Of a stretch of DNA of 23,312 nucleotides, positions 3,805 through 22,731 are shown piece after piece (position 1 is the first letter of the stretch; every line of letters starts with the position of its first letter). Made by a program: the position numbers and the translations under genes. The stretch lies in the IMG/VR virus record IMGVR_UViG_2541047726_000007. One strand, given 5' to 3'. Below the pieces are notes generated by a model, which saw nothing but the letters and a program-made list of their open reading frames with translations, searched no databases and was not told where the DNA came from. Origin of the DNA: a virus (Duplodnaviria > Heunggongvirae > Uroviricota > Caudoviricetes).

Positions 3805-4227
3805 ATCAATCTCCATTGGTATCAATGTTTACAGCCTGACAAGACTCTTTGAGCACCCAGTCAATAGCGTCTTTCCATGCCTCTGTTTCGACTGGTGGAT
3901 TTTCACGCTTAACCTGTTCATAGAAGCGCACTGCTTTAACCAGTCCTTCCGGTACTACTGGTGATGGCTGTTTAGCTTCTAAATCAGCAATTCTGTCAAC
4001 CACGGCATCGACAGCATCTGAAAAGCCGAACCAGTTGCTCCACTCCGGCTCATCCCCGGTTGCTGCAAAGTACATATCTGCTAAAGCAGATTCAGCATGG
4101 TCACGCTCGTTAATGAGTTGCTCTTCGCTTTTCTCCAGTTCAGCAATACGCTTACTGAAGTGGTTTACTGAATTTGGCCACCTGAACAGAGGTGATATGC
4201 TCACCTCAGAACAACACAGGTGCCATA

Positions 4228-5375
<1,148 letters not shown>

Positions 5376-5819
5376 CTCGGTGGCCAGTTTTTGTTGACCA
5401 CTTCATACCCCCATCCGAGATAACACCTTCGTAATACTCACGCTGCTCGTTGAGTTTTGATTTTGTCTCCTCAAGCTCAACTCTCAGCTTCCCAACAGTA
5501 AGAGCAATATCCTCGTTCTCCTGGTCGCGGCGTTTTATGTATTGCTGGTTTCTTTCCCGTTCATCCAGCAGTGCCAGCACAGTAGCCGGATTGGCTGCGG
5601 CGATGAATTCAGCATTGGCCTGCTGTTCCATTTGGAAATCTTCATCGAAACCGCTTTCTGGATGCGCTCCTTCAATTCTGCAAATGGGAATATATCCAGC
5701 AACTTCACGATGAATTAGCGCATAATCACCATCAAATCGGCTCTCTCCATATTCGAGCGACCACTCACCACACGTTGCTTTTTCTGCCGCTTCACGCAGT
5801 GCCTGATAGTTAATTTCGC

Positions 5820-6041
5820 TCACTTCGAACCTCTCTGTTTACTGATAAGCTCCAGATCCTCCTGGCAACTTGCACAAGTCCGACAACCCTGAACGACCAG
5901 GCGTCTTCGTTCATCTATGGGATCGCCACACTCACAACAATGAGTGGCGGATATAGTCTGGTAGTTCAGACGACGCATTTTTATTGCTGTATTGCGCTGT
6001 AATTCTTCAATTTCTGATGCTGAATCAATGATGTCCGCCAT
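5820..6041 (-). CDS. TraR/DksA-family C4 zinc-finger protein (73 aa)
   Basis: CxxC...CxxC arrangement (CCECGDPIDERRRLVVQGCRTCASC); ATGA overlap with the downstream ea22-like start. Confidence 0.7.
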   Translation of the reverse strand: MADIIDSASEIEELQRNTAIKMRRLNYQTISATHCCECGDPIDERRRLVVQGCRTCASCQEDLELISKQRGSK

Positions 6042-6102
6042 CTTTCATTAATCCCTGAATTGTTGGTTAATACGCTTGAGGGTGAATGCGAATAATAAAA
6101 AA

Positions 6103-6117
6103 GGAGCCTGTAGCTCC
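6103..6117 (-). terminator. Candidate intrinsic terminator (short stem GGAGC/GCTCC followed by a U-run on the minus strand)
   Basis: Minus strand reads GGAGCuacagGCUCC then UUUUUUAUUAUU. Confidence 0.35.
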
Positions 6118-6139
6118 CTGATGATTTTGCTTTTCATGT

Positions 6140-6355
6140 TCACCGTTCCTTAAAGACGCCGTTTAACATGCCGATCGCCAGGCTTAAATGAGTCGGTGTG
6201 AATCCCATCAGCGTTACCGTTTCGCGGTGCTTCTTTAGTACGCTACGGCAAATGTCATCGACGTTTTTATCCGGAAACTGCTGTCTGGCTTTTTTGATTT
6301 CAGAATTAGCCTGACGGGCAATGCTGCGAAGGGCGTTTTCTTGCTGAGGTGTCAC
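6140..6355 (-). CDS. Hypothetical protein (about 71 aa; start uncertain, GTG at 6353-6355 proposed)
   Basis: The 93-aa track ORF has an N-terminus overlapping a better-placed small ORF; the GTG overlaps that ORF's stop (GTGA). Confidence 0.4.
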   Translation of the reverse strand: MTPQQENALRSIARQANSEIKKARQQFPDKNVDDICRSVLKKHRETVTLMGFTPTHLSLAIGMLNGVFKER

Positions 6356-6435
6356 TGAACAAGCCCCATGTCGGCAAGCATAAGCACACAGAATATGAAG
6401 CCCGCTGCCAGAAAAATGCATTCAGTGGTTGTCAT
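6352..6435 (-). CDS. Small hydrophobic peptide (27 aa, MTTTECIFLAAGFIFCVLMLADMGLVQ)
   Basis: ATG overlaps the upstream stop (ATGA); single predicted membrane helix; below the ORF-track size cut-off. Confidence 0.3.
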   Translation of the reverse strand: MTTTECIFLAAGFIFCVLMLADMGLVQ

Positions 6436-6623
6436 ACCTGGTCTCTCTCATCTGCTTCTGCTTTCGCCACCATCATTTCCAGCTTTTGTGAAAGGGATGT
6501 GGCTAACGTATGAAATTCTTCGTCTGTTTCTACTGGTATTGGCACAAACCTGACTCCAATTTGAGCAAGGCTATGTGCCATCTCAATACTCGTTCTTAAC
6601 TCAACAGGAGATGCTTTGTGCAT
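6432..6623 (-). CDS. Lambda orf63-like small protein (63 aa)
   Basis: Same position and size as the small ORFs left of exo in lambda. Confidence 0.55.
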   Translation of the reverse strand: MHKASPVELRTSIEMAHSLAQIGVRFVPIPVETDEEFHTLATSLSQKLEMMVAKAEADERDQV

Positions 6624-6778
6624 ACCGCCTCCCGTTTATTATTTATCTTCTCAGCCAGCCGCTGTGCTTTCAGTGGATTTCTGATAACAGAAAGGCCGGG
6701 AAATACCCAGCCTCGCTTTGTAACGGAGTAGACGAAAGTGATCGCGCCTACCCGGATATTATCGTGAGGATGCGTCAT
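6596..6778 (-). CDS. Lambda orf60a-like small protein (60 aa)
   Basis: ATG at 6776-6778 overlaps the exo stop (ATGA); an alternative start lies 2 codons upstream. Confidence 0.5.
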
Positions 6779-7455
6779 CGCCATTGCTCCCCAAATACAA
6801 AACTAATTTCAGCCAGTGCCTCGTCCATTTTTTCGATGAACTCCGGCACCATCTCGTCAAAACTCGCCATGTACTTTTCATCCCGCTCAACCACGACATA
6901 ATGCAGTCCTTCACGCTTCATACGCGGGTCATAGTTGGCAAAGTACCAGGCATCTTTTCGCGTCACCCACATGCTGTACTGCACCTGGGCCATGTAAGCC
7001 GATTTTATGGCCTCGAAACCACCGAGCCGGAACTTCATGAAATCCCGGGAGGTAAACGGGCATTTCAGCTCAAGGCCGTTGCCGTCACTGCATAAACCAT
7101 CGGGAGAGCAGGCGGTGCGCATACTTTCGTCGCGATAGATGATCGGGGATTCAGTAACATTCACGCCGGAAGTAAACTCAAACAGGGCTCTGGCGTCGTT
7201 CTCGTACTGTTTTCCCCAAGCCAGCGCCTTAGCGTTAACTTCCGGAGCCACACCGGTGCAAACCTCAGCAAGCAGGGTGTGGAAGTAGGACATTTTCATG
7301 TCAGGCCATTTCTTTCCGGAGCGGGGTTTTGCTATCACGTTGTGAACTTCTGAAGCGGTGATGACGCCGAGCCGTAATTTGTGCCATGCATCATCCCCCT
7401 GTTCGACAGCTCTCACGTCGATCCCGGTACGCTGCAGGATAATGTCCGGTGTCAT
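6775..7455 (-). CDS. exo: Lambda exonuclease (Red alpha)
   Basis: 226-aa product near-identical to remembered lambda Exo. Confidence 0.95.
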
Positions 7456-8237
7456 GCTGCCACCTTCTGCTCAGTGGCTTTCTGTTTCAGGAATCCAAGA
7501 GCTTTCACTGCTTCGGCCTGTGTCAGTTCTGACGATGCGCGAATGTCGCGGCGAAATATCTGGGAACAGAGCGGCAATAAGTCGTCATCCCATGTTTTAT
7601 CCAGGGCGATCAGCAGAGTGTTAATCTCCTGCATGGTTTCATCGTTAACCGGAGTGATGTCGCGTTCCGGCTGACGTTCTGCAGTGTATGCGGTATTTTC
7701 GACAATGCGCTCGGCTTCATCCTTGTCATAGATACCAGCAAATCCGAAGGCGAGACGGGCACACTGAATCATGGCTTTATGCCGTAACATCCGTTTGGGA
7801 TGCGACTGCCACGGCCCCGTGATTTCTCTGCCTTCGCGGGTTTTGAATGGTTCGCGGCGGCATTCATCCATCCACTCGGTAACGCAGATCGGATGATTGC
7901 GGTCTTTGCGGTAAATCCGGCATGTACATGATTCATTGTCCTGCTCAAAGTCCATACCATCAAACTGCTGGTTTTCATTGATGATGCGGGACCAGCCATC
8001 AACGCCCACCACCGGAACAATGCCGTTCTGCTTATCAGGGAAGGCGTAAATTTCTTTCGTCCACGGATTAAGGCCGTACTGGTTGGCGACGATCAACAAT
8101 GCGATGAACTGCGCATCGCTGGCATCACCTTTAAATGCCGTCTGGCGAAGAGTGGTGATCAGTTCCTGTGGGTCGACAGAATCCATGCCGACACGTTCAG
8201 CCAGCTTCCCTGCCAGCGTTGCGAGTGCTGTACTCAT
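7452..8237 (-). CDS. bet: Recombinase Bet (Red beta), single-strand annealing protein
   Basis: 261-aa product near-identical to remembered lambda Bet; overlaps exo by 4 nt. Confidence 0.95.
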
Positions 8238-8242
8238 CCGTT

Positions 8243-8539
8243 TTATACCTCTGAATCAATATCAGCCTGATGGTGAGCAATGGTTTCAACTATGTACCGG
8301 ATGTGTTCTGCCATGCGCTCCTGAAACTCAACATCGTCATCAAACGCACGGGTAATGGCTTTTTTGCTGGCCCCGTGGCGTTGTAAATGATCGATGCATA
8401 GCGATTCAAACAGGTGCTGGGGCAGGCCTTTTTCCATGTCGTCTGCCAGTTCTGCCTCTTTCTCTTCACGGGCGATCTGCTGGTAGTGACGCGCCCAGCT
8501 CTGAGCCTCAAGACGATCCTGAATGTAATAAGCGTTCAT
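8243..8539 (-). CDS. gam: Gam (RecBCD inhibitor), 98-aa GamS form
   Basis: [21 protein letters not shown]...; AGGAG ribosome-binding site upstream. Confidence 0.9.
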
Positions 8540-8614
8540 GGCTGAACTCCTGAAAATGGCTGTGAAAATATCGCCCGCGAAATGCCAGGCTGATTAGGAA
8601 AACAGGAAAGGGGG

Positions 8615-8758
8615 TTAGTGAATGCTTTTGCTTGATCTCAGTTTCAGTATTAATATCCATTTTTTATAAGCGTCGACGGCCTCACGAAACATCTTTTCAT
8701 CGCCAATAAAAGTGGCGATAGTGAATTTAGTCTGGATAGCCATAATTGTTTGATCCAT
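8615..8758 (-). CDS. kil: Kil (host-killing / cell-division inhibitor), 47 aa
   Basis: [47 protein letters not shown] is lambda Kil-like; start lies inside the 3' end of cIII. Confidence 0.75.
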
Positions 8759-8891
8759 TTTTTGGGACTCCTGGCTGATTAAGTATGTCGATAAGGCGTT
8801 TCCATCCGTCACGTAATTTACGGGTGATTCGTTCAAGTAAAGATTCGGAAGGGCAGCCAGCAACAGGCCACCCTGCAATGGCATATTGCAT
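8727..8891 (-). CDS. cIII: CIII (FtsH inhibitor that stabilises CII), 54 aa
   Basis: Hand translation gives [54 protein letters not shown]; TAAGGAG site upstream; below the ORF-track cut-off. Confidence 0.75.
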   Translation of the reverse strand: MQYAIAGWPVAGCPSESLLERITRKLRDGWKRLIDILNQPGVPKNGSNNYGYPD

Positions 8892-8963
8892 GGTGTGCTC
8901 CTTATTTATACATAACGAAAAACGCCTCGAGTGAAGCGTAATTGGTATGCGGTAACGCCGCGC

Positions 8964-9332
8964 TCAGGCGGCCTTGATAGTCATATCATCTGAATCAAAT
9001 ATTCCTGATGTATCGATATCGGTAATTCTTATTCCTTCACTACCATCCATTGGAGGCCATCCTTCCTGACCATTTCCATCATTCCAGTCGAACTCACACA
9101 CAACACCATATGCATTTAAGTCGCTTGAAATTGCTATAAGCAGAGCATGTTGCGCCAGCATGATTAATACAGCATTTAATACAGAGCCGTGTTTATTGAG
9201 TCGGTATTCAGAGTCTGACCAGAAATTATTAATCTGGTGAAGTTTTTCCTCTGTCATTACGTCATGGTCAATTTCAATTTCTATTGATGCTTTCCAGTCG
9301 TAATCAATGATGTATTTTTTGATGTTTGACAT
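8964..9332 (-). CDS. ea10: Ea10-like protein (122 aa)
   Basis: Position between cIII and ral and the same length as lambda Ea10. Confidence 0.65.
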   Translation of the reverse strand: MSNIKKYIIDYDWKASIEIEIDHDVMTEEKLHQINNFWSDSEYRLNKHGSVLNAVLIMLAQHALLIAISSDLNAYGVVCEFDWNDGNGQEGWPPMDGSEGIRITDIDTSGIFDSDDMTIKAA

Positions 9333-9352
9333 CTATTCATATCCTCATAGAT

Positions 9353-9378
9353 AAAAAATCGCCCTCACACTGGAGGGC
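9353..9378 (-). terminator. Candidate intrinsic terminator between ral and ea10
   Basis: Minus strand: GCCCUCcagugu-GAGGGC followed by GAUUUUUUAUCU. Confidence 0.5.
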
Positions 9379-9514
9379 AAAGAAGATTTCCAATAATCAG
9401 AACAAGTCGGCTCCTGTTTAGTTACGAGCGACATTGCTCCGTGTATTCACTCGTTGGAATGAATACACAGTGCAGTGTTTATTCTGTTATTTATGCCAAA
9501 AATAAAGGCCACTA

Positions 9515-9715
9515 TCAGGCAGCTTTGTTGTTCTGTTTACCAAGTTCTCTGGCAATCATTGCCGTCGTTCGTATTGCCCATTTATCGACATATTTCCCAT
9601 CTTCCATTACAGGAAACATTTCTTCAGGCTTAACCATGCATTCCGATTGCAGCTTGCATCCATTGCATCGTTTGAATTGTCCACACCATTGATTTGTATC
9701 AATAGTCGTAGTCAT
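9515..9715 (-). CDS. ral: Ral (restriction alleviation), 66 aa
   Basis: MTTTIDTNQWCGQFKRCNGCKLQSECMVKPEE... is lambda Ral-like. Confidence 0.8.
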   Translation of the reverse strand: MTTTIDTNQWCGQFKRCNGCKLQSECMVKPEEMFPVMEDGKYVDKWAIRTTAMIARELGKQNNKAA

Positions 9716-9785
9716 ACGGATAGTCCTGGTATTGTTCCATCACATCTTGAGGATGCTCTTCGAACTCTTCAAATTCTTCTTCCAT
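9699..9785 (-). CDS. Small acidic protein (28 aa, MEEEFEEFEEHPQDVMEQYQDYPYDYDY), lambda orf28 position
   Basis: AAGGTG site 5 nt before the ATG; overlaps the ral start; below the ORF-track cut-off. Confidence 0.4.
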   Translation of the reverse strand: MEEEFEEFEEHPQDVMEQYQDYPYDYDY

Positions 9786-9928
9786 ATATCACCTTAAATA
9801 GTGGATTGCGGTAGTAAAGATTGTGCCTGTCTTTTAACCACATCAGGCTCGGTGGTTCTCGTGTACCCCTACAACGAGAAATCGGATAAACTCTATTCAC
9901 CCCTACAGAGAGCAAAAGAGAAACGCCG

Positions 9929-10510
9929 ATGAACAACTCATGGTGGCAGGAACTAATGCATTTTTTCCTGCAAGGAATGACACTTAAACAGTTGATTCAT
10001 ATGCTAATCATCCTGATCATATTGATTATTGTTATGCCGGTAAGCGTAAAAGAATGGATAAACCTGCATAGTCCAGAAATCCTTCCTCATTACTGGATGT
10101 ATTACATCCTGTTGTTTTGCGTTAGCTATGTGCTTAACGGCGTTGTTAATTCCGCTTATCACGCTGTGACTGAAAGAATTGAGGTATTCGCTGCTCAGAA
10201 GCGCAAATCTAAAGAAGAAAAATATGTGCAAGATTTGTTTGATTCGTTAACTCTTGGAGAAAGAGCGTATTTGGCATTCGCTGTAGCCGCTAATAACCAG
10301 CTACAAACGGAAAAGGGCGCTCATGAATCAATTTCATTGCTCAAAAAAGGACTCCTCGTTCGAAGGCCTCCTGCTGTTGGATATCCTGATACCGACCGTT
10401 TCGTTATCCCTGAAAGCTATAGACATGAGTGCTACATTAGGTTTGCCGGGAAGGCAGACAGCCTTATGGATGAACTTATCGCTCAGGATAAGCATGGCAA
10501 AAACAAGTAA
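9929..10510 (+). CDS. sieB: Superinfection exclusion protein B (membrane protein)
   Basis: 193-aa product with hydrophobic N-terminal helices, lambda SieB-like; transcribed opposite to the pL operon as in lambda. Confidence 0.85.
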   Translation: MNNSWWQELMHFFLQGMTLKQLIHMLIILIILIIVMPVSVKEWINLHSPEILPHYWMYYILLFCVSYVLNGVVNSAYHAVTERIEVFAAQKRKSKEEKYVQDLFDSLTLGERAYLAFAVAANNQLQTEKGAHESISLLKKGLLVRRPPAVGYPDTDRFVIPESYRHECYIRFAGKADSLMDELIAQDKHGKNK

Positions 10511-10526
10511 TTAGCAAATGAATTTA

Positions 10527-10799
10527 TCATCTCGCCGTCAGTTGTTTTGATTTCCGGTAGCCTGCCGCGTAAAGAGCTACGTTCGGAAGACAAGTTGAAC
10601 CTTCATATTTTCTGGTCAACGTTGTCAGAGTTATCACTTCTGCTCTCATTGCTGGTTTGAGCTTGCATTGCAAGACCACTCGTGAAGGGGTTGGCCTGTG
10701 TAGCTTGTCGGAGCTGATCGCCTCCTGACTTTGCAGATTTGCGCGACGAGCTCTACGGCGAGAAGCTGCGGTGCCTTTAAATTCTGTTTTTCTGGACAT
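10527..10799 (-). CDS. N: N-like transcription antiterminator (90 aa) with an arginine-rich motif, not lambda N
   Basis: N-terminal GTAASRRRARRA motif; first gene downstream of pL/nutL; GGAGG site before the ATG at 10797-10799. Confidence 0.7.
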   Translation of the reverse strand: MSRKTEFKGTAASRRRARRANLQSQEAISSDKLHRPTPSRVVLQCKLKPAMRAEVITLTTLTRKYEGSTCLPNVALYAAGYRKSKQLTAR

Positions 10800-10824
10800 G
10801 GATTCCTCCCGAATAAACTTTGGC

Positions 10825-10871
10825 GATGCAATCTCGAAGCTCCTCCTGAGACGGTTGCTTCGGCATTGCAT
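10825..10871 (-). promoter_or_regulatory. Long imperfect hairpin in the N leader (candidate RNase III site / translational control element)
   Basis: 15-nt arms GATGCAATCTCGAAG and CTTCGGCATTGCATC (2 mismatches) separated by 17 nt, 26 nt upstream of the N start. Confidence 0.4.
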
Positions 10872-10897
10872 CCCACAGCTTATGTGGTTGGGTGATC

Positions 10898-10942
10898 TGG
10901 CTTTTCAGCCACGTAGTCGAGAGTCGACGTTGTTTAAAGAGC
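10898..10942 (-). promoter_or_regulatory. nutL candidate: boxA (GCTCTTTAA), spacer hairpin, boxB (UGGCU-GAAA-AGCCA)
   Basis: boxA-like nonamer and a GAAA-loop hairpin on the minus strand between pL and N; same architecture as the nutR candidate. Confidence 0.5.
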
Positions 10943-10984
10943 CTGCCAGTCTGTTCCATTTGGCTTCCAGCGTCCTGCTGACGG

Positions 10985-11020
10985 TTAAATAGTACGATAT
11001 GTACTTTACAAGATCAATAC
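10985..11020 (-). promoter_or_regulatory. pL/oL candidate (TTGATC-17-TACTAT with an embedded AGTACATATCGTACT palindrome)
   Basis: Sigma-70-like hexamers about 36 nt upstream of boxA; the palindrome resembles motifs in the cI-cro intergenic region. Confidence 0.35.
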
Positions 11021-11199
11021 AATTTGTTGTAAGTTGGCGTGGTTTTTTATAACGCTTTGTATTTAATAGTGTTGTTTTTTAGCGTGGATGTATTGCCTCG
11101 GCGATGTAAGGAGAGATCAGAATTGCGTGGTTTAGTGGGTTGCATCTATTTATTTTTCAATAAATATAATTGGTTATGTGTTTTTAGGTGGGCGAACGT

Positions 11200-11232
11200 G
11201 AGGCAAAGAAAACCCGGCGCTGAGGCCGGGTT
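11200..11232 (-). terminator. Intrinsic terminator ending the cI-geneA-geneB operon
   Basis: Perfect 8-bp stem AACCCGGC/GCCGGGTT with a 6-nt loop, followed on the minus strand by UUUUCUUUG, 3 nt after the gene B stop. Confidence 0.7.
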
Positions 11233-11235
11233 GTA

Positions 11236-11988
11236 TTATGCTGCAAGTCTCTTAACCCAAGTCTCTCTTTTGGAGAATGGTAGAACTTGGCTTGATTCAT
11301 GGAAGAGTAAGGAGAGTTGTTGCATTTGATCACCAATTGCTTCGCTGTCTATAACAACAAATCTGTTGTTATACTCCTCACTTGAAGCTTTAAGATCAAT
11401 TAGTTTCCCAAGCAATGAGTAAGCACTATTCCAGCTTCCTCCGTGTTTCACGCTTGATGTAAAAACGTATTTAGGTATGTCGGTTTTTATTGTTACAGGG
11501 ACGGTAATTTGATGTCCACTCAAGCCATATACGTTTTCACGAAGAGAAAGTGCGTCTCTAAGCTCTGTGTGATATAGATAATCAATAACCATACTTTCAA
11601 ACTTTTCAGCTTGAACTGGCTGATACCAGTCTAACGACAAAGTTGATGCGAGTATACCAGCTCTAATTATGTTCGATGTAATCGCACCGACATCCTTTTC
11701 TGTTGCCCAAGCAATGATTTCTCCTCGAGCATTGAGTTCTGCGCCTTCTTTAAGCAGTAATTGTCGTATCTCATCAAGTCGTTTTTTGGTAAGCGAGATC
11801 CCTCTTGCCTCCATATTCATTAAGGCATCGCATCTGTCACTAACTAAATACCTACCATTGACTTCACGGATAAAGGCACCGACATGCTCTCCATCATCAC
11901 AGTAAGTGAATGGACTGATAATTCTCAAGGTCTTGCCTATTGGATGGCATTCGAAACCTAGTTGTGAGATCACTGTTGAGCACATCAT
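11236..11988 (-). CDS. Hypothetical protein, rex-position cassette gene B (250 aa)
   Basis: Long ORF whose ATG overlaps the gene A stop (ATGA); AT-rich; no transmembrane segments evident. Confidence 0.7.
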   Translation of the reverse strand: MMCSTVISQLGFECHPIGKTLRIISPFTYCDDGEHVGAFIREVNGRYLVSDRCDALMNMEARGISLTKKRLDEIRQLLLKEGAELNARGEIIAWATEKDVGAITSNIIRAGILASTLSLDWYQPVQAEKFESMVIDYLYHTELRDALSLRENVYGLSGHQITVPVTIKTDIPKYVFTSSVKHGGSWNSAYSLLGKLIDLKASSEEYNNRFVVIDSEAIGDQMQQLSLLFHESSQVLPFSKRETWVKRLAA

Positions 11989-12542
11989 ATTCCAAACCCC
12001 ATTTGCCCCGACTCATCTTCAAGCGGTAAAGGTATTCTCCCAGAGTAAGTTATGTTCAGATGTTTACAGAAGTAATTCCAATACCCTACCAGGTCATCTG
12101 GGTTTATGTCATCTTCGATTGGAAACGCTATTCTATCACTATAGTATCCAGCTTCTTCATAGTATACATGGTAGTGAGCACCGTAAATGATATCTTGGTA
12201 CTTCGGATGATCGACCTTGTAACTATTCGTGTGTTTGTCAAAGTGATAGGTATCTACCGCGAAAACCCTCTTGTTATGATAGAAAGCAATAATATTTATT
12301 TTAGGGTAAGAAATCGGGTCATCAGGTTCTGAATCCTGATCTGGTTTCCATTTCAGTTCAAACTTTAGCCCTTGTATAGGTATACAATCCTCATCCAAGG
12401 GGATGATATGGGCTTGTAGCCACATATCAGAGCGACTTGGTTTCTGTTTCCATTTAACGCCAGAAAAGTTAACTATTTTTTTACAATAAAGTACTTTATC
12501 AACTTCTACTTGGCTTGGCTGATAATCATCTATTTTTGCCAA
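11985..12542 (-). CDS. Hypothetical protein, rex-position cassette gene A (185 aa; TTG start, uncertain)
   Basis: ORF 39 nt downstream of cI; AT-rich; Tyr/His/Asp-rich, no recognisable motif. Confidence 0.6.
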   Translation of the reverse strand: MAKIDDYQPSQVEVDKVLYCKKIVNFSGVKWKQKPSRSDMWLQAHIIPLDEDCIPIQGLKFELKWKPDQDSEPDDPISYPKINIIAFYHNKRVFAVDTYHFDKHTNSYKVDHPKYQDIIYGAHYHVYYEEAGYYSDRIAFPIEDDINPDDLVGYWNYFCKHLNITYSGRIPLPLEDESGQMGFGI

Positions 12543-12581
12543 TGTTTACCGCCCTGTAAATTGTAGATAAAAGTGGTTTCA

Positions 12582-13235
12582 TCACCCAAACGTCTCTTCA
12601 GGCCATTGGCTGGCGATAACTTTCCCCACAACGGAACAACTCTCATTGCATGGGATCATTGGGTATTGTGGGTTTAGTGGCTGTAGAAACACCTGACCGC
12701 TATCCCTGATCAGTTTCTTGAAGGTAAATTCATCACCACCAAGTCTGGCTATGCAGAAATCGCCGGGCTCAACAGCTTGCTCAGGGTCAACCAGAATTAA
12801 CATCCCGTCAGGAAAGCTGGGTTTGGAACCTGTTGGTGCGGTCATTGAGTTACCTTCAACCTCAAGCCAGAATGCAGAGTCACTGGCTTTTTTGGTTGTG
12901 CTTACCAATCTCTCCGCATCGCCTTTGGTAAAGGTTCTGAGTTCTGGAGAGAACATCCCAGCCTGAACATGAGAAAAAACAGGGTACTCATATTGTTTTT
13001 TAACTGGGGCCGATGAGTATTCGCCAACAGGTGAAAATGTCCCGTCGTGGTTGAATGATATGTTATCAATACCAAGGTATTTAAACACCACACCAATATC
13101 ACTAAGAGATGGATGACGAGATCCGCGCAACCAGTGTCCAATCCCACCCTGCGTCATACCTAGCTCTTCGGCTAACTTCTCTTGAGTTATGCCGAGCTCT
13201 TTCATTCTGGATCTAGCCAGTTCATACCATTTCAT
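12582..13235 (-). CDS. cI: CI repressor, chimeric: lambda-type C-terminal domain with a non-lambda HTH N-terminal domain
   Basis: C-terminal about 130 aa match remembered lambda cI ([13 protein letters not shown]...[10 protein letters not shown]); the N-terminus differs; start taken as ATG 13233-13235 (an ATG two codons upstream is also possible). Confidence 0.85.
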
Positions 13236-13352
13236 TTTCATGTCCTTATTATTACGCTCTGTACTGGAACCATCCATGCACAATGTGTATTTTTACTTGT
13301 ATTCGCAAAGTACATATTGTATTTTTTTATTCGTGTTTACTATGGAGGGCAT
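13236..13352. promoter_or_regulatory. Divergent pRM/pR operator-promoter region (oR candidate)
   Basis: AT-rich 117-bp spacer between divergent cI and cro with several imperfect palindromes containing GTAC/TGTA half-sites. Confidence 0.5.
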
Positions 13353-13568
13353 ATGAGCAACCTACGAAAATATCGAGAGTCACTGAATATCTCTCAAACA
13401 ACACTTGCTAAGGCAGTTGGATGCACACAGGGAGCTATCGGACATTGGGAATCTGGTCGTCGCTTCCCAGACCTTAAAACATGCCGTGCTCTTGTTGCGT
13501 GCCTAAACAAGTTAGGCGCAAAAGTCAGTCTTGATGACGTGTTCCCGCCGGAACACAAAGCCGCTTAA
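13353..13568 (+). CDS. cro: Cro-like HTH repressor (71 aa), non-lambda
   Basis: HTH motif (QTTLAKAVGCTQGAIGHWESG); GGAGGG site before the ATG; divergent from cI. Confidence 0.8.
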   Translation: MSNLRKYRESLNISQTTLAKAVGCTQGAIGHWESGRRFPDLKTCRALVACLNKLGAKVSLDDVFPPEHKAA

Positions 13569-13578
13569 TAAGCGGATC

Positions 13579-13624
13579 CGCTCTTTGTAACAACGGACAT
13601 TCGTCCTACGTCGCTGAAAAGCGA
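13579..13624 (+). promoter_or_regulatory. nutR candidate: boxA (CGCTCTTTG), spacer hairpin, boxB (UCGCU-GAAA-AGCGA)
   Basis: Located just after the cro stop; mirrors the nutL candidate. Confidence 0.5.
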
Positions 13625-13709
13625 GTTCCAAGATATCTGACCAACTAAGGCCATATGCGTTTCCACGCATACCTTTCAACTAACTATTCACTATTGGAAA
13701 TCTTAAGAA

Positions 13710-14006
13710 ATGGAAAGAACAAGTTACAGCAAACTATCACAGCGTGACGTTGATCGCGCAGAAACAGATTTACTTATCAATCTGTCAGCTATTACCCAGC
13801 GCGGTCTGGCAAAGATGATTGGCTGTCATGAATCGAAGATAAGCAGAACGGACTGGAGATTTATTGCTTCGGTCTTGTGTGCTTTCGGAATGGCATCAGA
13901 CATCAGTCCGATTAGCAGGGCTTTTAAGTATGCGCTTGATGGACTCACCAATAAAAAACGCCCGGCGGCAACCGAGCGTTCTGAACAAATCCAGATGGAA
14001 TTCTGA
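13710..14006 (+). CDS. cII: CII transcriptional activator, chimeric: lambda-like C-terminus, divergent N-terminus
   Basis: The C-terminal TNKKRPAATERSEQIQMEF matches lambda CII. Confidence 0.75.
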   Translation: MERTSYSKLSQRDVDRAETDLLINLSAITQRGLAKMIGCHESKISRTDWRFIASVLCAFGMASDISPISRAFKYALDGLTNKKRPAATERSEQIQMEF

Positions 14007-14028
14007 GGTCATTACTGGATCAATCCAC
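13952..14028 (-). ncRNA. oop: OOP antisense RNA (about 77 nt) with its terminator
   Basis: Minus strand reads ...GTTGCCGCCGGGCGTTTTTTAT, matching the remembered lambda oop 3' end; antisense to the cII 3' end. Confidence 0.55.
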
Positions 14029-14038
14029 AGGAGTCATT

Positions 14039-14938
14039 ATGACAAATACAGCAAAAATACTCAACTTCTGCAGAGGTAACTTTGCCAAACAGGAGCGTAA
14101 TGTGGCAGATCTCGATGATGGTTACGCCAGACTATCAAATATGCTGCTTGAGGCTTATTCAGGCGCAGATCTGACCAAGCGACAGTTTAAAGTGCTGCTT
14201 GCCATTCTGCGTAAAACCTATGGATGGAATAAACCAATGGACAGAATCACCGATTCTCAACTTAGCGAGATTACAAAGTTACCCGTCAAACGGTGCAATG
14301 AAGCCAAGTTAGAACTCGTCAGAATGAATATTATCAAGCAGCAAGGCGGCATGTTTGGACCAAATAAAAACATCTCAGAATGGTGTATCCCTCAAAACGA
14401 GGGAAAATCCCCTAAAACGAGGGATAAAACATCCCTCAAATTGGGGGATTGCTATCCCTCAAAACAGGGGGACACAAAAGACACTATTACAAAAGAAAAA
14501 AGAAAAGATTATTCGTCAGAGAATTCTGGCGAATCCTCTGACCAGCCAGAAAACGACCTTTCTGTGGTGAAACCGGATGCTGCAATTCAGAGCGGCAGCA
14601 AGTGGGGGACAGCAGAAGACCTGACCGCCGCAGAATGGATGTTTGACATGGTGAAGACCATCGCGCCATCAGCCAGAAAACCGAATTTTGCAGGGTGGGC
14701 TAACGATATCCGCCTGATGCGTGAACGTGACGGACGTAACCATCGCGACATGTGTGTACTGTTCCGCTGGGCATGCCAGGACAACTTCTGGTCCGGTAAC
14801 GTGCTGAGCCCGGCCAAACTCCGCGACAAGTGGACCCAGCTCGAAATCAACCGTAACAAGCAACAGGCAGGTGTGACAGCCTGCAAACCAAAACTCGACC
14901 TGACAAACACTGACTGGATTTACGGGGTGGATTTATGA
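14039..14938 (+). CDS. O: Replication initiator O
   Basis: 299-aa lambda O-like product with the ori iterons inside the gene. Confidence 0.9.
   Translation: MTNTAKILNFCRGNFAKQERNVADLDDGYARLSNMLLEAYSGADLTKRQFKVLLAILRKTYGWNKPMDRITDSQLSEITKLPVKRCNEAKLELVRMNIIKQQGGMFGPNKNISEWCIPQNEGKSPKTRDKTSLKLGDCYPSKQGDTKDTITKEKRKDYSSENSGESSDQPENDLSVVKPDAAIQSGSKWGTAEDLTAAEWMFDMVKTIAPSARKPNFAGWANDIRLMRERDGRNHRDMCVLFRWACQDNFWSGNVLSPAKLRDKWTQLEINRNKQQAGVTACKPKLDLTNTDWIYGVDL
14386..14515. repeat. Replication origin: four iterons (ATCCCTCAAAACGAGGGA-like) plus an adjacent A/T-rich segment
   Basis: Four direct repeats of an about 18-bp inverted-repeat unit at 14386-14471, followed by ACAAAAGACACTATTACAAAAGAAAAAAGAAAAG. 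Confidence 0.85.
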
Positions 14939-15636
14939 AAAACATCGCCGCACAGATGGTTAATTTTGACCGTGAGCAGATGCGTCGGATCGCCAACAAC
15001 ATGCCGGAACAGTACGACGAAAAGCCGCAGGTACAGCAGGTAGCGCAGATCATCAACGGTGTGTTCAGCCAGTTACTGGCAACTTTCCCGGCGAGTCTGG
15101 CTAACCGTGACCAGAACGAACTGAACGAAATCCGCCGCCAGTGGGTTCTGGCTTTCCGGGAAAACGGGATCACCACAATGGAACAGGTTAACGCAGGAAT
15201 GCGCGTAGCCCGTCGGCAGAATCGACCATTTCTGCCATCACCCGGGCAGTTTGTTGCATGGTGCCGGGAAGAAGCATCCGTTATCGCCGGACTGCCAAAC
15301 GTCAGCGAGCTGGTTGATATGGTTTACGAGTATTGCCGGAAGCGAGGCCTGTATCCGGATGCAGAGTCTTATCCGTGGAAATCGAACGCGCACTACTGGC
15401 TGGTTACCAACCTGTACCAGAACATGCGGGCCAATGCGCTGACTGACGCGGAATTACGACGCAAGGCTGCCGATGAACTGACCTGTATGACAGCGCGAAT
15501 TAACCGTGGTGAGACGATACCTGAACCAGTAAAACAACTTCCTGTCATGGGCGGCAGACCTCTAAATCGTGTTCAGGCGCTGGCGAAGATCGCAGAAATT
15601 AAAGCTAAGTTAGGACTGAAAGGAGCAAGTGTATGA
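14935..15636 (+). CDS. P: Replication protein P (DnaB helicase loader)
   Basis: 233-aa lambda P-like product; overlaps the O stop. Confidence 0.9.
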   Translation: MKNIAAQMVNFDREQMRRIANNMPEQYDEKPQVQQVAQIINGVFSQLLATFPASLANRDQNELNEIRRQWVLAFRENGITTMEQVNAGMRVARRQNRPFLPSPGQFVAWCREEASVIAGLPNVSELVDMVYEYCRKRGLYPDAESYPWKSNAHYWLVTNLYQNMRANALTDAELRRKAADELTCMTARINRGETIPEPVKQLPVMGGRPLNRVQALAKIAEIKAKLGLKGASV

Positions 15637-15923
15637 CGGGCAAAGAGGCAATTATTCATTACCTGGGGACGCATAATAGCTTCTGTGCGCCGGACGTTGC
15701 CGCGCTAACAGGCGCAACAGTAACCAGCATAAATCAGGCCGCGGCTAAAATGGCACGGGCAGGTCTTCTGGTTATCGAAGGTAAGGTCTGGCGAACGGTG
15801 TATTACCGGTTTGCTACCAAGGAAGAACGGGAAGGAAAGATGAGCACGAACCTGATTTTTAAGGAGTGTCGCCAGAGTGCCACGATGAAACGGATATTGG
15901 CGGTATATGGAGTTAAAAGATGA
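15633..15923 (+). CDS. ren: Ren (rex exclusion protection), 96 aa
   Basis: Lambda Ren-like sequence and position. Confidence 0.8.
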   Translation: MTGKEAIIHYLGTHNSFCAPDVAALTGATVTSINQAAAKMARAGLLVIEGKVWRTVYYRFATKEEREGKMSTNLIFKECRQSATMKRILAVYGVKR

Positions 15924-15948
15924 CCATCTACATCACTGAGCTAATAAC

Positions 15949-15976
15949 AGGCCTGCAGGTAATCGCAGGCCTTTTT
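15949..15976 (+). terminator. Intrinsic terminator between ren and ninB (tR2-like)
   Basis: 8-bp stem AGGCCTGC/GCAGGCCT with an 8-nt loop, followed by TTTTTATTT. Confidence 0.7.
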
Positions 15977-15996
15977 ATTTGGGGGAGAGGGAAGTC

Positions 15997-16437
15997 ATGA
16001 AAAAACTAACCTTTGAAATTCGATCTCCGGCACATCAGCAAAACGCTATTCACGCAGTACAGCAAATCCTTCCAGACCCAACCAAACCAATCGTAGTAAC
16101 CATTCAGGAACGCAACCGCAGCTTAGACCAAAACAGGAAGCTATGGGCCTGCTTAGGTGACGTCTCTCGTCAGGTTGAATGGCATGGTCGCTGGCTGGAT
16201 GCAGAAAGCTGGAAGTGTGTGTTTACCGCAGCATTAAAGCAGCAGGATGTTGTTCCTAACCTTGCCGGGAATGGCTTTGTGGTAATAGGCCAGTCAACCA
16301 GCAGGATGCGTGTAAGCGAATTTGCGGAGCTATTAGAGCTTATACAGGCATTCGGTACAGAGCGTGGCGTTAAGTGGTCAGACGAAGCGCGACTGGCTCT
16401 CGAATGGAAAGCGCGATGGGGAGATCGGGCTGCATGA
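15997..16437 (+). CDS. ninB: NinB (Orf recombination mediator), 146 aa
   Basis: MKKLTFEIRSPAHQQNAIHAVQQILPDPTKPIVVTIQERNRSLDQNRKLWA... is lambda NinB-like. Confidence 0.85.
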   Translation: MKKLTFEIRSPAHQQNAIHAVQQILPDPTKPIVVTIQERNRSLDQNRKLWACLGDVSRQVEWHGRWLDAESWKCVFTAALKQQDVVPNLAGNGFVVIGQSTSRMRVSEFAELLELIQAFGTERGVKWSDEARLALEWKARWGDRAA

Positions 16438-18841: not shown

Positions 18842-19924
18842 TTAGAACTGATAAACCAGACCTACAGCGACGATGTCGTCGGTATCAATACCAGCTGTTT
18901 TGGTAAACTTACTATCGTCAATTAAGTTGATTTTGTAATCAACAAAAGTGGACATGTTTTTATTAAAGTAGTAAGTAGCACCGACATCGACATACTTGAC
19001 TAAGTCTCGGTCACCATGAACACCAAGGTCTTTACCTTTTGACTGAAGGTAAGCAACAGATGGACGCAGACCGAAGTCAAACTGATATTGTGCTACTGCT
19101 TCAAAGTTTTGTGCTTTGTTTGCAATATGGTTATTACCAAAAACGGTCATATTCTGAGTTTCAGAATATGTGGTAGCCAGATAGATATTGTTCGCATCAT
19201 ATTTCAGGCCTGCAGCCCATACTTCCGCATTTTTGCCGGAGGCATTGAATTTGCTCTTACCATAGGCGACCTGACCGTCAGTGCGATCTGATTTAGCATA
19301 GGTTGCACCCACGCCGAATCCTTCATACTCATAAGTAGTGGAGAAACCGAAACCATCACCATTGGCTTCAGTTACGTCAGTGCGGTCATTTTTACCCTGA
19401 TACTGAGCAGCAAAGTTCAGGCCATCGACCAGACCAAAGAAGTCGTTGTTACGATAAGTTGCAACACCAGTAGTGCGACCAGTCATGAACACATCTGTTT
19501 GGGTCCAGGTATCACCACCGAATTCTGGCAGAACGTCAGTCCACGCACCGATGTCGTATGCTACACCGTAGTTACGGCCGTAATCGATTGAGCCGTAATC
19601 ACCAAATTTCAGGCCTGCAAATGCAAGACGGGTTTTGTCTTTGGAAGAACCTTGAGATTCAGCACGGTTGCCTTTGAATTCATATTCCCACTGACCGAAA
19701 CCAGTCAGTTGATCGTTGATTTGGGTTTCACCTTTGAAGCCAAGACGGGCATAAGTAGTATCACCATCATCTGCATCATTAGAGGAGAAGTAGTGCTTGG
19801 CATTAACTTTCCCGTATAGATCCAGCTTGTTACTGTCTTTATTATAAATTTCAGCTGCCTGAGCAGACATCGCCATCAGTACTGATGCAGCTACAGCAGA
19901 AATTGCCACTGTTAATTTTTTCAT
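18842..19924 (-). CDS. nmpC: Outer-membrane porin, OmpC/OmpF family (NmpC / Lc-type lysogenic-conversion porin), intact
   Basis: Signal peptide [23 protein letters not shown] followed by porin beta-barrel features and a C-terminal ...VGLVYQF. Confidence 0.9.
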
Positions 19925-20350
19925 TGTACGCCCTTTTTTTGAACTTTTATTAAAAAATGATGTCACTGCGCGATAAATATTCATCTAATCAATGTGATTA
20001 TTTCAAGATGTAAGTTTTAGTTTCTCATTTAATTTGTGAAGTAGATCTCTATTTTTATCTGAACCTTTTCTATCTAATCCTATTCATGGCTCTTGTCTGA
20101 ACAAAAATAAATCTATTAGCTAATTTATATTAATGGCACTTATTTATAAGTGCTCTATAATTCTTTAGCTTAATTTAAACAAACTAAAAATAACATCGGA
20201 AATTATTAACTGGTTATTTGTTGAAGTTTTCTTATGCATTTGTGGTGGTGTTTTGAACACTCGGTGGCATTCTCACAAATATCATTTAGTAGTTTACGTA
20301 CGTAAAAAATTGGTTATGCTGTTAAGAGTGGTTACTTCGTCACACAGCTT

Positions 20351-21683: not shown

Positions 21684-21706
21684 AGCTGCCCGGTAATGAC
21701 TCCAAC

Positions 21707-22210
21707 TTATTGATAGTGTTTTATGTTCAGATAATGCCCGATGACTTTGTCATGCAGCTCCACCGATTTTGAGAACGACAGCGACTTCCGTCCCAGCCGT
21801 GCCAGGTGCTGCCTCAGATTCAGGTTATGCCGCTCAATTCGCTGCGTATATCGCTTGCTGATTACGTGCAGCTTTCCCTTCAGGCGGGATTCATACAGCG
21901 GCCAGCCATCCGTCATCCATATCACCACGTCAAAGGGTGACAGCAGGCTCATAAGACGCCCCAGCGTCGCCATAGTGCGTTCACCGAATACGTGCGCAAC
22001 AACCGTCTTCCGGAGCCTGTCATACGCGTAAAACAGCCAGCGCTGGCGCGATTTAGCCCCGACGTATCCCCACTGTTCGTCCATTTCCGCGCAGACGATG
22101 ACGTCACTGCCCGGCTGTATGCGCGAGGTTACCGACTGCGGCCTGAGTTTTTTAAATGGCGGAAAATCGTGTTGAGGCCAACGCCCATAATGCGGGCGGT
22201 TGCCCGGCAT
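21707..22210 (-). CDS. insB: IS1 InsB reading frame (expressed as InsAB' by frameshift)
   Basis: 167-aa ORF overlapping insA, IS1 InsB-like. Confidence 0.85.
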
Positions 22211-22404
22211 CCAACGCCATTCATGGCCATATCAATGATTTTCTGGTGCGTACCGGGTTGAGAAGCGGTGTAAGTGAACTGCAGTTGCCATGTTTTACGG
22301 CAGTGAGAGCAGAGATAGCGCTGATGTCCGGCGGTGCTTTTGCCGTTACGCACCACCCCGTCAGTAGCTGAACAGGAGGGACAGCTGATAGAAACAGAAG
22401 CCAC
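22129..22404 (-). CDS. insA: IS1 InsA
   Basis: 91-aa product with zinc-finger and HTH features, matching remembered InsA. Confidence 0.85.
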
Positions 22405-22459
22405 TGGAGCACCTCAAAAACACCATCATACACTAAATCAGTAAGTTGGCAGCATCACC

Positions 22460-22731
22460 CAGGCTTGTATGTTAATAGCGCAGCGACAGATGTATTTGCA
22501 GAGAAAACCACATTTGGATGTATTGCAAAAGCTGATGGTCACTTTCATGTGGTGACAAATGGTAAAGCGGTTAATGAAGTTTATTGTGAATATAATGGTG
22601 TGACCGCTGATAAAAATATCCGATTTGGAGGGCAGACGAATACTGGAGAACGACATCTGTTTGGCCATATTCGCAATTTCCGCATATGGCATAAAGAATT
22701 AAATGACAGGCAATTAAAAGAGGTCGTATGA
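22460..22731 (+). pseudogene. 3' fragment of a gene truncated by IS1; C-terminus resembles a LamG/concanavalin-like domain
   Basis: The frame is open from the IS1 boundary; ends ...LFGHIRNFRIWHKELNDRQLKEVV. Confidence 0.4.

Follow-up and report, generated by a model that had tools for sequence, protein, structure and literature searches.

An already known immunity module with joints to lambda inside cI and cII in a lambda-like phage of Escherichia coli

Does the mosaic of lambda and non-lambda DNA between the repressor gene cI and the gene cII record a recombination event of this particular phage, and with it a new immunity specificity, or were the joints inherited together with a known module? 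The question is raised by positions 12582-14006 of the 23,312 nucleotides analysed here (the whole stretch is referred to as the window), for which the original prediction proposed a chimeric cI and a junction inside cII. The limits it gave are exact, as in the ORF list 12582 corresponds to the cI stop and 14006 to the cII stop. The region is very probably a complete and apparently functional module for early regulation (immunity) in a temperate E. coli phage similar to lambda and phage 21, and is of a common and already sequenced immunity type. It is already known: the sequence has been deposited repeatedly, Stx phages with this immunity type have been catalogued, and each of the two joints is a lambdoid module boundary of the textbook kind.

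Compared with lambda (NC_001416) by blastn, the region falls into three segments. Positions 12581-12992 correspond to lambda 37226-37637, the 3' part of cI (93.4% identity over 412 nt), and positions 13944-16437 to lambda 38591-41084, which comprise the last 21 codons of cII, oop, O, P, ren and ninB (97.3% identity). The interval 12993-13943, with the cI DNA-binding domain, OR, cro, nutR and codons 1-77 of cII, has no blastn match to NC_001416. In a 50-nt profile the identity to lambda drops abruptly at both edges, from ~90-96% to ~25-50%, and the reading frames are unbroken across both joints. The mosaic structure relative to lambda was thus correctly foreseen: a lambda-like C-terminal domain of cI, a non-lambda cI N-terminus followed by non-lambda operators, cro and N-terminal part of cII, and a return to lambda at the cII C-terminus that continues through oop, O and P, with homology breakpoints inside cI (12992/12993) and inside cII (13942-13944).

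The first of these breakpoints divides the repressor gene into two parts.

12582-13241, minus strand: cI repressor gene, 219 aa from the ATG at 13241, stop codon 12582-12584 (ORF list)
12582-12992, minus strand: lambda-type cI block, with the hinge from the equivalent of lambda Tyr101, the Ala-Gly site, the S24 catalytic/oligomerisation domain and the stop codon
12993-13241, minus strand: non-lambda DNA-binding N-terminal domain of cI (83 aa, HTH_3; no lambda blastn match), which sets the immunity specificity

Pfam recognizes HTH_3 (2e-10) and Peptidase_S24 (1e-28) in cI, and all 219 residues are identical to those of cI of Stx2-converting phage II (Stx2 II). In the lambda-type block, 135 of 136 amino acids are those of lambda, and 26 of the 27 codons that differ are synonymous. 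Alignment to PDB entries 3bdn/8gmu revealed conservation of A111-G112, S149 and K192, the sole change being W129L. The joint falls within the hinge, at the position of lambda Tyr101, and the Ala111-Gly112 cleavage site follows ten residues further on; all phages of this type share this position. In the N-terminal domain only 19 of 83 residues (23%) agree with lambda. This domain is identical in ~56 phage records, among them those of 1717, YYZ-2008 and the PA series; its next relatives, in the Salmonella phages SPN9CC, g341c and epsilon34, are ~52% identical.

Public records place the start of cI at 13277, and the mechanical ORF begins with a TTG at 13283. Since the predicted OR3 and OR2 fall within this longer frame, upstream of 13241, cI probably starts at 13241 and encodes 219 residues, and the start in the public records is probably too far upstream. 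The frame of 231/233 aa was rejected as the likely product for the same reason. An ATG at 13241 (or 13235) would fit a leaderless PRM transcript like that of lambda.

The control sites and genes around cI were located as follows.

13250-13324: OR, three predicted 17-bp sites (OR3 13250-13266, OR2 13276-13292, OR1 13308-13324), identical to the putative operators of AP005154
13276-13271 (-35) and 13253-13248 (-10), leftward: PRM, overlapping OR, a putative promoter annotated in AP005154, hexamers inferred
~13292-13325, rightward: PR, overlapping OR and divergent from PRM, a putative promoter annotated in AP005154, hexamers inferred
10990-11064: OL, three predicted sites (10990-11006, 11015-11031, 11048-11064) upstream of N, with the same core motif as OR
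10527-10871, minus strand: N gene, protein 99% identical to N of Stx2 II
13353-13568, plus strand: cro, 71 aa, a lytic repressor of the HTH_3 type (Pfam, 4e-12) and not of the lambda Cro family
13579-13624, plus strand: putative nutR, read from the sequence, boxA CGCTCTTTG at 13579-13587 and boxB hairpin TCGCTGAAAAGCGA at 13611-13624
10899-10942, minus strand: putative nutL, boxA 10934-10942 and boxB GGCTGAAAAGCC 10899-10910, matching nutR

A generic sigma-70 consensus scan detected neither PR nor PRM, which were therefore placed by the annotation of the AP005154 depositors and by operator geometry. The nut sites are presumed from their resemblance to those of lambda, and their function is putative. 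The operator core ACNNNNTGTAYT (AC-N4-TGTAYT) occurs 11 times in the window, against 0.97 expected, and seven of these matches lie inside OR and OL. OR1-3 and OL1 are identical to the corresponding Stx2 II sites, and the other OL sites are nearly so. A lambda-type operator, searched for with up to 4 mismatches to TATCACCGCCAGTGGTA, is absent from the whole window; the features that define lambda immunity, namely the lambda cI DNA-binding domain, the TATCACCGC... operators and lambda Cro, are likewise missing. The sites are spaced by 26 and 32 bp at OR and by 25 and 33 bp at OL, unlike the 23-24 bp of lambda, so that pairwise cooperativity as in lambda is not guaranteed. The arrangement is that of a lambdoid module, with divergent cI (minus strand) and cro (plus strand), a tripartite OR between them and a second tripartite operator next to N. 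The repressor would bind the six 17-bp operators of OR and OL through its non-lambda HTH domain, repress PR and PL and, given the lambda-like geometry, autoregulate PRM.

Cro agrees in all 71 residues with the 'putative cro' of Stx2 II and is 35% identical to the N-terminal domain of the cI encoded in its own module. A tblastn search of lambda gave no match to it at E<=1e-3. The closest solved structure in the PDB search was 28tn, a 'lambda repressor-like protein', and 434 Cro was not matched; neither the repressor nor the Cro structure of 434 was retrieved at the thresholds used. Like the Cro proteins of 434 and P22, and unlike that of lambda, this Cro is a paralogue, within HTH_3, of the N-terminal domain of the repressor. 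An immunity of the 434 or P22 type was considered and rejected, as cI is only 31.5% identical to the 434 repressor and 36.7% to P22 c2; a match of the window cro to 434, which imm434 would entail, was not obtained by tblastn at E<=1e-2.

The second breakpoint lies in cII, where several features overlap.

13710-14006, plus strand: cII, 98 aa (Pfam Phage_CII, 7e-34, full length)
13719-13732, minus strand: probable CII binding site of PRE, TTGC-N6-TTGT, TTGCTGTAACTTGT, found by pattern search inside the 5' end of cII
13942-13944: homology joint in cII at codon 78 (...ALDG/LTNK...), 8-10 nt past the 3' end of oop
13952-14028, minus strand: gene for the oop antisense RNA (77 nt), whose span includes the final 55 nt of cII
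13955-13982, minus strand: oop terminator stem, a terminator-like site
14064-14036, minus strand: oop promoter po, TTGAGT-17-CATAAT (sigma-70 scan)
14039-14938, plus strand: O, 97.9% nucleotide identity to lambda O (Pfam Phage_rep_O)
14935-15636, plus strand: P, 95.4% nucleotide identity to lambda P

Codons 1-77 of cII are of the HK022/HK97/phage 21/Stx2 II type, and from codon 79 on the tail LTNKKRPAATERSEQIQMEF is of the lambda/434 type. The tail is identical to that of lambda, whereas the whole protein is only 43% identical to lambda CII; in tblastn, Stx2 II and phage 21 reach 86-87% and HK022 and HK97 82-83%. On the nucleotide level the tail is 96% identical to lambda and 72% to Stx2 II. 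In the alignments, the window follows Stx2 II, HK022 and HK97 up to ...GCGCTTGATG and lambda and 434 from CTCACC on. The comparison with Stx2 II had suggested a cII joint unique among all known phages. This was rejected because phage 21 has the identical joint, base for base (GCGCTTGATGGACTCAC; GCGCTTGATGGA/CTCAC). The right boundary of imm21 has been described as 'within cII left of oop' (PMC3349717), and in the window, as in imm21, the lambda non-homology ends inside cII just left of oop.

An Rfam scan of the whole window yielded the cIII thermometer and no other match; Rfam contains no family corresponding to oop. The gene was therefore positioned by the 97% alignment with lambda, in which we take oop to extend from 38675 to 38599, and by inspection of its promoter, terminator and fold, the latter being close to that of lambda (-28.4 versus -28.5 kcal/mol). 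The last 20 residues of cII, together with the overlapping oop, would belong to a lambda-type replication block (to-oop-po-O-P). The DNA-binding and tetramerisation parts of CII would come from the HK022/HK97/21 lineage and would activate PRE within the 5' end of their own gene. At the same place in cII, the phage 21 record annotates pRE and states 'CII binding site matches ttgynnnnnnttgy'. A gene of the CII family past cro and nutR, a putative TTGY-N6-TTGY PRE site and a predicted antisense oop are further attributes of a lambdoid module.

Stx2 II, with its identical cI, Cro, OR1-3 and OL1, has 96.7% nucleotide identity to the window over 12584-14046, including the same lambda-type C-terminal block and hinge joint. 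Its immunity region recurs in the Stx1-converting phage of Morioka V526 and is shared with phage 1717, with YYZ-2008 and with the Stx2a phages of the PA series. This group differs from the window in the cII tail, the oop region and the replication genes, which are of the HK022/P22 type, and in another gene in the slot left of cI; the homology ends at 14046. By the identity of the cI DNA-binding domain, cro and the operators, the immunity is predicted to be of the Stx2 II/1717/YYZ-2008 type. In a classification of Stx-phage CI proteins, a group ~61% identical to lambda CI was designated 'Clade I' (PMC8951638), which is probably the same protein as the cI of the window. Hence, of the new specificity that had been proposed, the predicted departure from lambda stands, as the DNA-binding domain, operators and cro all differ, but its novelty does not.

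Phage 21 (OL657228) is colinear with window positions 13678-15420 (the tR1 region, cII, oop, O and P) at 96.3% identity, and int-xis and exo-ral are also ~97% identical. Its record annotates a copy of the 3' end of icd with an adjacent attP, and the prophage of E. coli ATCC 25922 adjoins icd. Within the overlap of oop and cII, where the window resembles lambda, the phage 21 sequence departs from it by a 3-nt insertion and a small number of substitutions. Its cI is only 36% identical and its N, OL, OR and cro differ; tblastn of the window cro and N gave no match in phage 21 at E<=1e-2, so the imm21 cI, cro and N are absent from the window. Relative to phage 21, the sole substitution would be the block N-OL-(two accessory genes)-cI-OR-cro-nutR, at ~9810-13677. 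The imm21 substitution also occurs in lambda hybrids such as the DE3 prophage. Lambda itself has the same architecture of cI, OR1-3, cro, nutR, cII, oop, O and P, with OL next to N, but in the window rexA and rexB are replaced by two unrelated genes.

The module is widespread. Positions 11900-14700 are 100% identical in phages ev207, ev017, PhiR57_1 and PhiR63_2, 12582-14300 in the prophage of E. coli ATCC 11775, and 1-21691 in the ATCC 25922 prophage, which diverges after 21691. In these phages and prophages the genes follow one another as in the window, down to the two accessory genes left of cI, and 12582-14006 shows no difference. The original prediction had been opposed to a region colinear throughout with a single known phage whose cI lacks the lambda-specific C-terminal domain; colinear phages were indeed found, but they too possess the lambda-type cI C-terminus. 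With presence defined as at least 80% of 12582-14300, the module was counted in 593 of the 5426 complete E. coli genomes, about 1 in 9. A megablast query spanning the cII junction extended through the 72%-identical tail and did not cleanly separate chimeric from HK-type cII; for this reason only the 291 E. coli records in the band of at least 99% identity are counted, as a safe lower bound. The lambda-type C-terminal block is found at full length in 1211 of the 5426 genomes (~22%), about twice as many as contain this N-terminal domain, and behaves as a discrete, widely shared unit.

The sharp identity steps at 12992/12993 and 13942-13944 could be taken as the trace of a recent cross that took place in this phage alone, with lambda itself and a heteroimmune Stx-type phage as parents, and that would have created a novel chimeric cI and cII and a new specificity, as the original prediction implied. 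The lambda-type cII tail of the window, as opposed to the HK022-type tail of Stx2 II, agrees with such an event. It is nevertheless extremely unlikely, as the identical cI chimera is present in Stx2 II and ~60 other phage records, the 26 synonymous codon differences show that the C-terminal block was not recently derived from lambda, the cII joint is that of phage 21, isolated in the 1950s, and the exact module resides in hundreds of genomes. Recombination particular to this phage is therefore not borne out. The chance that the mosaic arose by faulty assembly or joining of contigs is negligible; nothing was found in its favour, the frames are intact across both joints, and the same sequence was obtained in several ATCC 25922 assemblies, ATCC 11775, ev207, ev017 and PhiR57_1.

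Alternatively, cI and cII might have diverged in place without any recombination, the DNA-binding parts changing rapidly while selection held the C-terminal parts constant. The C-terminal block is indeed under strong purifying selection (26 synonymous to 1 non-synonymous codon), and in the cII tail the overlapping oop gene imposes a second constraint. Arguing against this scenario, which we regard as very improbable, is the ~93% identity of the synonymous sites in the C-terminal block when the DNA three bases away is unalignable and contains indels. Moreover, the N-terminal family is found on other classes of C-terminal domain (the Salmonella phages are ~52-55% identical in the N-terminal part and 46-70% overall), and one N-part of cII occurs with two different tails and replication modules. 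In the E. coli survey, breakpoints were seen at many other places (past cro, ahead of cII, within cII and past oop), and the present comparisons already indicate discordant phylogenies for the halves of cI and cII. In the more plausible model, both junctions with lambda would be old module boundaries inherited from ancestors; for cI, an old joint is indicated by the 26 synonymous codons among the 27 that differ. Both fall at places that the architecture of the protein tolerates. In cI this is the flexible hinge, ahead of the cleavage site; in CII it is the transition from the structured body to a dispensable regulatory tail, immediately past the 3' end of oop. The value of the region as a discovery is small, and both joints have a modest illustrative value.

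The predicted combination of a non-lambda specificity with lambda-type induction is supported as far as the protein can be read, since the Ala-Gly site and the equivalents of Ser149 and Lys192 are conserved and the lambda-type cleavage apparatus is intact. Because the hinge and C-terminal domain are those of lambda in all but one residue, the repressor would be expected to dimerise, to act cooperatively and, when stimulated by RecA, to cleave itself at Ala-Gly through its Ser/Lys dyad, as in lambda. In practical terms, ATCC 25922, a widely used control strain, carries a heteroimmune, probably SOS-inducible switch. In E. coli prophages the nearly identical C-terminal block is found with two or more kinds of DNA-binding domain, which makes it conceivable, though unlikely, that heteroimmune repressors in polylysogens mix subunits in heterodimers or mixed tetramers and octamers, so that prophages residing together would be linked in their stability and in their thresholds for SOS induction. 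If so, an Stx prophage and a prophage of lambda immunity, for example, would be coupled. The block occupies 1435 places in the 1211 genomes, so that up to ~200 genomes contain two or three copies, which may simply be pairs of homoimmune prophages.

Owing to IS elements elsewhere in the window, the prophage copy may be non-viable even with an intact switch. An ISEc52-like insertion, lacking in PhiR57_1, occupies 4156-5405, and an IS1 is located after Rz.

Relative to lambda, the immunity module is a real mosaic. A blastn comparison with the lambda reference (NC_001416, 25000-48502) yielded three segments: window 12581-12992 corresponds to lambda 37226-37637 with 93.4% identity, window 12993-13943 is without a match in that part of the reference, and window 13944-16437 corresponds to lambda 38591-41084 with 97.3% identity, taking in the 3' end of cII, oop, O, P, ren and ninB. 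An identity profile against lambda in 50-nt steps changes abruptly at either edge of the unmatched block. From the equivalent of lambda Tyr101 to the C-terminus, cI shares 135 of 136 residues with lambda (the sole substitution is W129L), and the cleavage site Ala111-Gly112, Ser149 and Lys192 are all conserved. The N-terminal domain (83 aa) is 23% identical to that of lambda, cro had no lambda match by tblastn at E<=1e-3, and a lambda-type operator was found nowhere in the window. CII is 43% identical to its lambda counterpart overall, yet the final 20 residues are the same. Since blastn segments, protein identities and operator search agree, the original prediction was accurate in describing a lambda cI C-terminal domain, a non-lambda cI N-terminus, operators, cro and front part of cII, and lambda identity from the cII C-terminus through oop, O and P. 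The predicted immunity specificity is non-lambda; the cleavage apparatus is lambda-type.

Open reading frames of the module and its right flank, with Pfam domains
12582-13283, minus strand (leftward): HTH_3 and Peptidase_S24; stop of the cI-like gene at 12582, the left end of the module
13353-13568: HTH_3, in the cro position
13710-14006, plus strand (rightward): Phage_CII, full length; stop of the cII-like gene at 14006, the right end of the module
14039-14938: Phage_rep_O

The sole Rfam match in the window is Lambda_thermo, the cIII mRNA thermoregulator (8846-8904, minus strand, 88.5 bits).

The breakpoints claimed inside cI and cII are present relative to lambda, but neither joint is new. 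In the alignment across the cI joint, the latter falls at 12992/12993 in the codon of lambda Tyr101, within the flexible hinge and 10 residues ahead of the cleavage site. The window and Stx2-converting phage II (Stx2 II) do not differ across this joint, and the chimera is therefore older than their divergence. Of the 136 codons shared with lambda 27 differ, 26 of them synonymously, indicative of an old C-terminal block under strong purifying selection that was not recently acquired from lambda itself. The block (12585-12992) is full-length in 1211 of 5426 complete E. coli genomes, about twice the number with the present N-terminal domain. It occupies 1435 places in these genomes, at most three per genome, and genomes with several repressors sharing this oligomerisation domain are therefore common; multiple copies were seen above all in O157:H7 strains. 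The block behaves as a shared unit attached to more than one DNA-binding domain.

Two alignments across the cII joint place it at 13942-13944, in codon 78. Before it, up to ...GCGCTTGATG, cII is of the Stx2 II/HK022/HK97 type; after it, starting with CTCACC, of the lambda/434 type. Classical phage 21 (OL657228) carries the same joint sequence, GCGCTTGATGGACTCAC, and the same ...ALDG/LT... protein architecture, which identifies the junction as the classical right-hand boundary of imm21. Lambda oop, at 38675-38599 on the lambda map, was used to locate oop in the window.

Elements of the oop region
14028-13952, minus strand: oop, from lambda coordinates carried over via the alignment
13982-13955, minus strand: oop terminator stem
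14064-14036, minus strand: po-like promoter, TTGAGT-17-CATAAT

With oop ending at 13952, the joint lies 8-10 nt past its 3' end, and the oop fold is almost unchanged from that of lambda. The lambda-type block is to-oop-po-O-P and incidentally encodes the CII tail. According to Hayes et al. (PMC3349717), CII activity does not depend on the final 17 residues, but OOP control does. Compared with Stx2 II, the N-terminal part of cII has 13 nucleotide differences, six of them non-synonymous. Identity to that phage is 86-90% in 13701-13800 (the cII 5' end including the PRE region) and 98-100% in the flanks; the segment may be a small extra mosaic patch.

The claim of a new specificity fails, as Stx2 II has the same cI (219/219 aa), cro (71/71 aa), OL1 and all three OR sites (N, 99% identical), and 593 of 5426 complete E. 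coli genomes contain at least 80% of 12582-14300, with the type strain ATCC 11775 at 100%. The module is already known. Phages ev207, ev017, PhiR57_1 and PhiR63_2 match window 11900-14700 at 100% identity, and a prophage adjoining icd in E. coli ATCC 25922 does so over window 1-21691. About 56 phage records, among them 1717, YYZ-2008 and the PA-series Stx2a phages, have an identical cI N-terminal domain; its next closest relatives, from Salmonella phages, are about 52% identical. A survey of Stx-phage CI proteins described a 'Clade I' with about 61% identity to lambda CI (PMC8951638), which is probably the same protein.

A recent event particular to this phage is contradicted as the origin of the mosaic by the presence of the joints in other phages and by the synonymous divergence from lambda. 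Divergence in place, without recombination, is likewise contradicted: alignability is lost abruptly beside synonymous sites that are 93% identical, and the same cI and cII halves occur in other combinations. An assembly artefact is excluded by the same sequence in independent assemblies. In the E. coli survey, breakpoints also recur after cro, ahead of cII and beyond oop, which is ordinary lambdoid modular exchange.

Window 13678-15420 is colinear with phage 21 at 96.3%, and int-xis (1-2057) and exo-bet-gam-kil-cIII-ea10-ral (5830-9809) are about 97% identical. The sole difference from phage 21 is the block N-OL-(two accessory genes)-cI-OR-cro-nutR, at about 9810-13677. The corresponding ATCC 25922 prophage adjoins icd. 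The element is best regarded as a backbone of the phage 21/lambda type that bears a different immunity block.

The core ACNNNNTGTAYT is common to six 17-bp sites and has 11 matches in the window versus 0.97 expected, seven of them inside two clusters. Depositor annotation in AP005154 marks these operator sites too, together with PRM and PR on their flanks.

Predicted control sites
13250, 13276 and 13308 (starts): operators OR3, OR2 and OR1
10990, 11015 and 11048 (starts): operators OL1, OL2 and OL3
13276-13271, leftward: putative PRM -35
13253-13248, leftward: putative PRM -10, AATAAT
13579-13587 and 13611-13624: putative nutR boxA and boxB
10934-10942 and 10899-10910: putative nutL boxA and boxB

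The boxB sequence GCUGAAAAGC is common to nutR and nutL. From the positions of the PRM hexamers, transcription would start at about ATG 13241 and yield a leaderless, lambda-like cI of 219 aa; OR2, abutting the -35, would serve activation and OR3, over the -10, autorepression. The public cI start, ATG 13277 (PhiR57_1, AP005154, RefSeq WP_001302016), falls within predicted OR2 and precedes predicted PRM on the upstream side. This longer start is probably wrong; ATG 13241, or 13235 with AAGGA as a Shine-Dalgarno sequence 7 nt upstream, is more plausible. CII would bind TTGC-N6-TTGT (13732-13719), within the cII 5' end. Induction would be expected to follow the lambda route, since the cleavage site and the catalytic dyad are those of lambda itself. 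Cro, like its counterparts in 434 and P22, is related to the repressor N-terminal domain (35% identity). The closest solved structure to Cro (13353-13565) is PDB 28tn, a 'lambda repressor-like protein' (E 4.5e-17, residues 1-69); apparently a close relative was solved recently.

Two co-directional ORFs (11985-12542 and 11236-11988, minus strand) lie 3' of cI in the slot of lambda rexA/rexB. The limits of the slot are the cI stop and a terminator-like hairpin (11211-11232), the latter within sequence (11111-11232) that shares 90% identity with lambda. The related phages 2G7b, 2B8 and Stx2 II, with the same cI, have different genes there. In PADLOC the two ORFs match PDC-M24A (E 4.8e-4) and PDC-M24B (E 4.7e-10), a candidate defence pair, and in Pfam DUF6978 (weakly) and DUF1828; they may form a prophage defence system expressed from PRM. 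A literature search found no mention of PDC-M24.

A segment of about 1.25 kb (4156-5405) that PhiR57_1 does not contain corresponds to a copy of the IS3-family element ISEc52, annotated as frameshifted in the ATCC 25922 prophage and inserted in the orf61/orf63 region. Identity to PhiR57_1 and the ATCC 25922 prophage stops at 21691, immediately past Rz. The next ORFs, 22129-22404 and 21707-22210 (minus strand), are putative IS1 InsA/InsB genes, and the prophage copy may be interrupted or truncated at 21692-22460. Between Q and the lysis genes, the PhiR57_1 and ATCC 25922 annotations place an OmpC/OmpD-like porin gene (about 18842-19984, minus strand), which is cargo of the lysogenic-conversion type.
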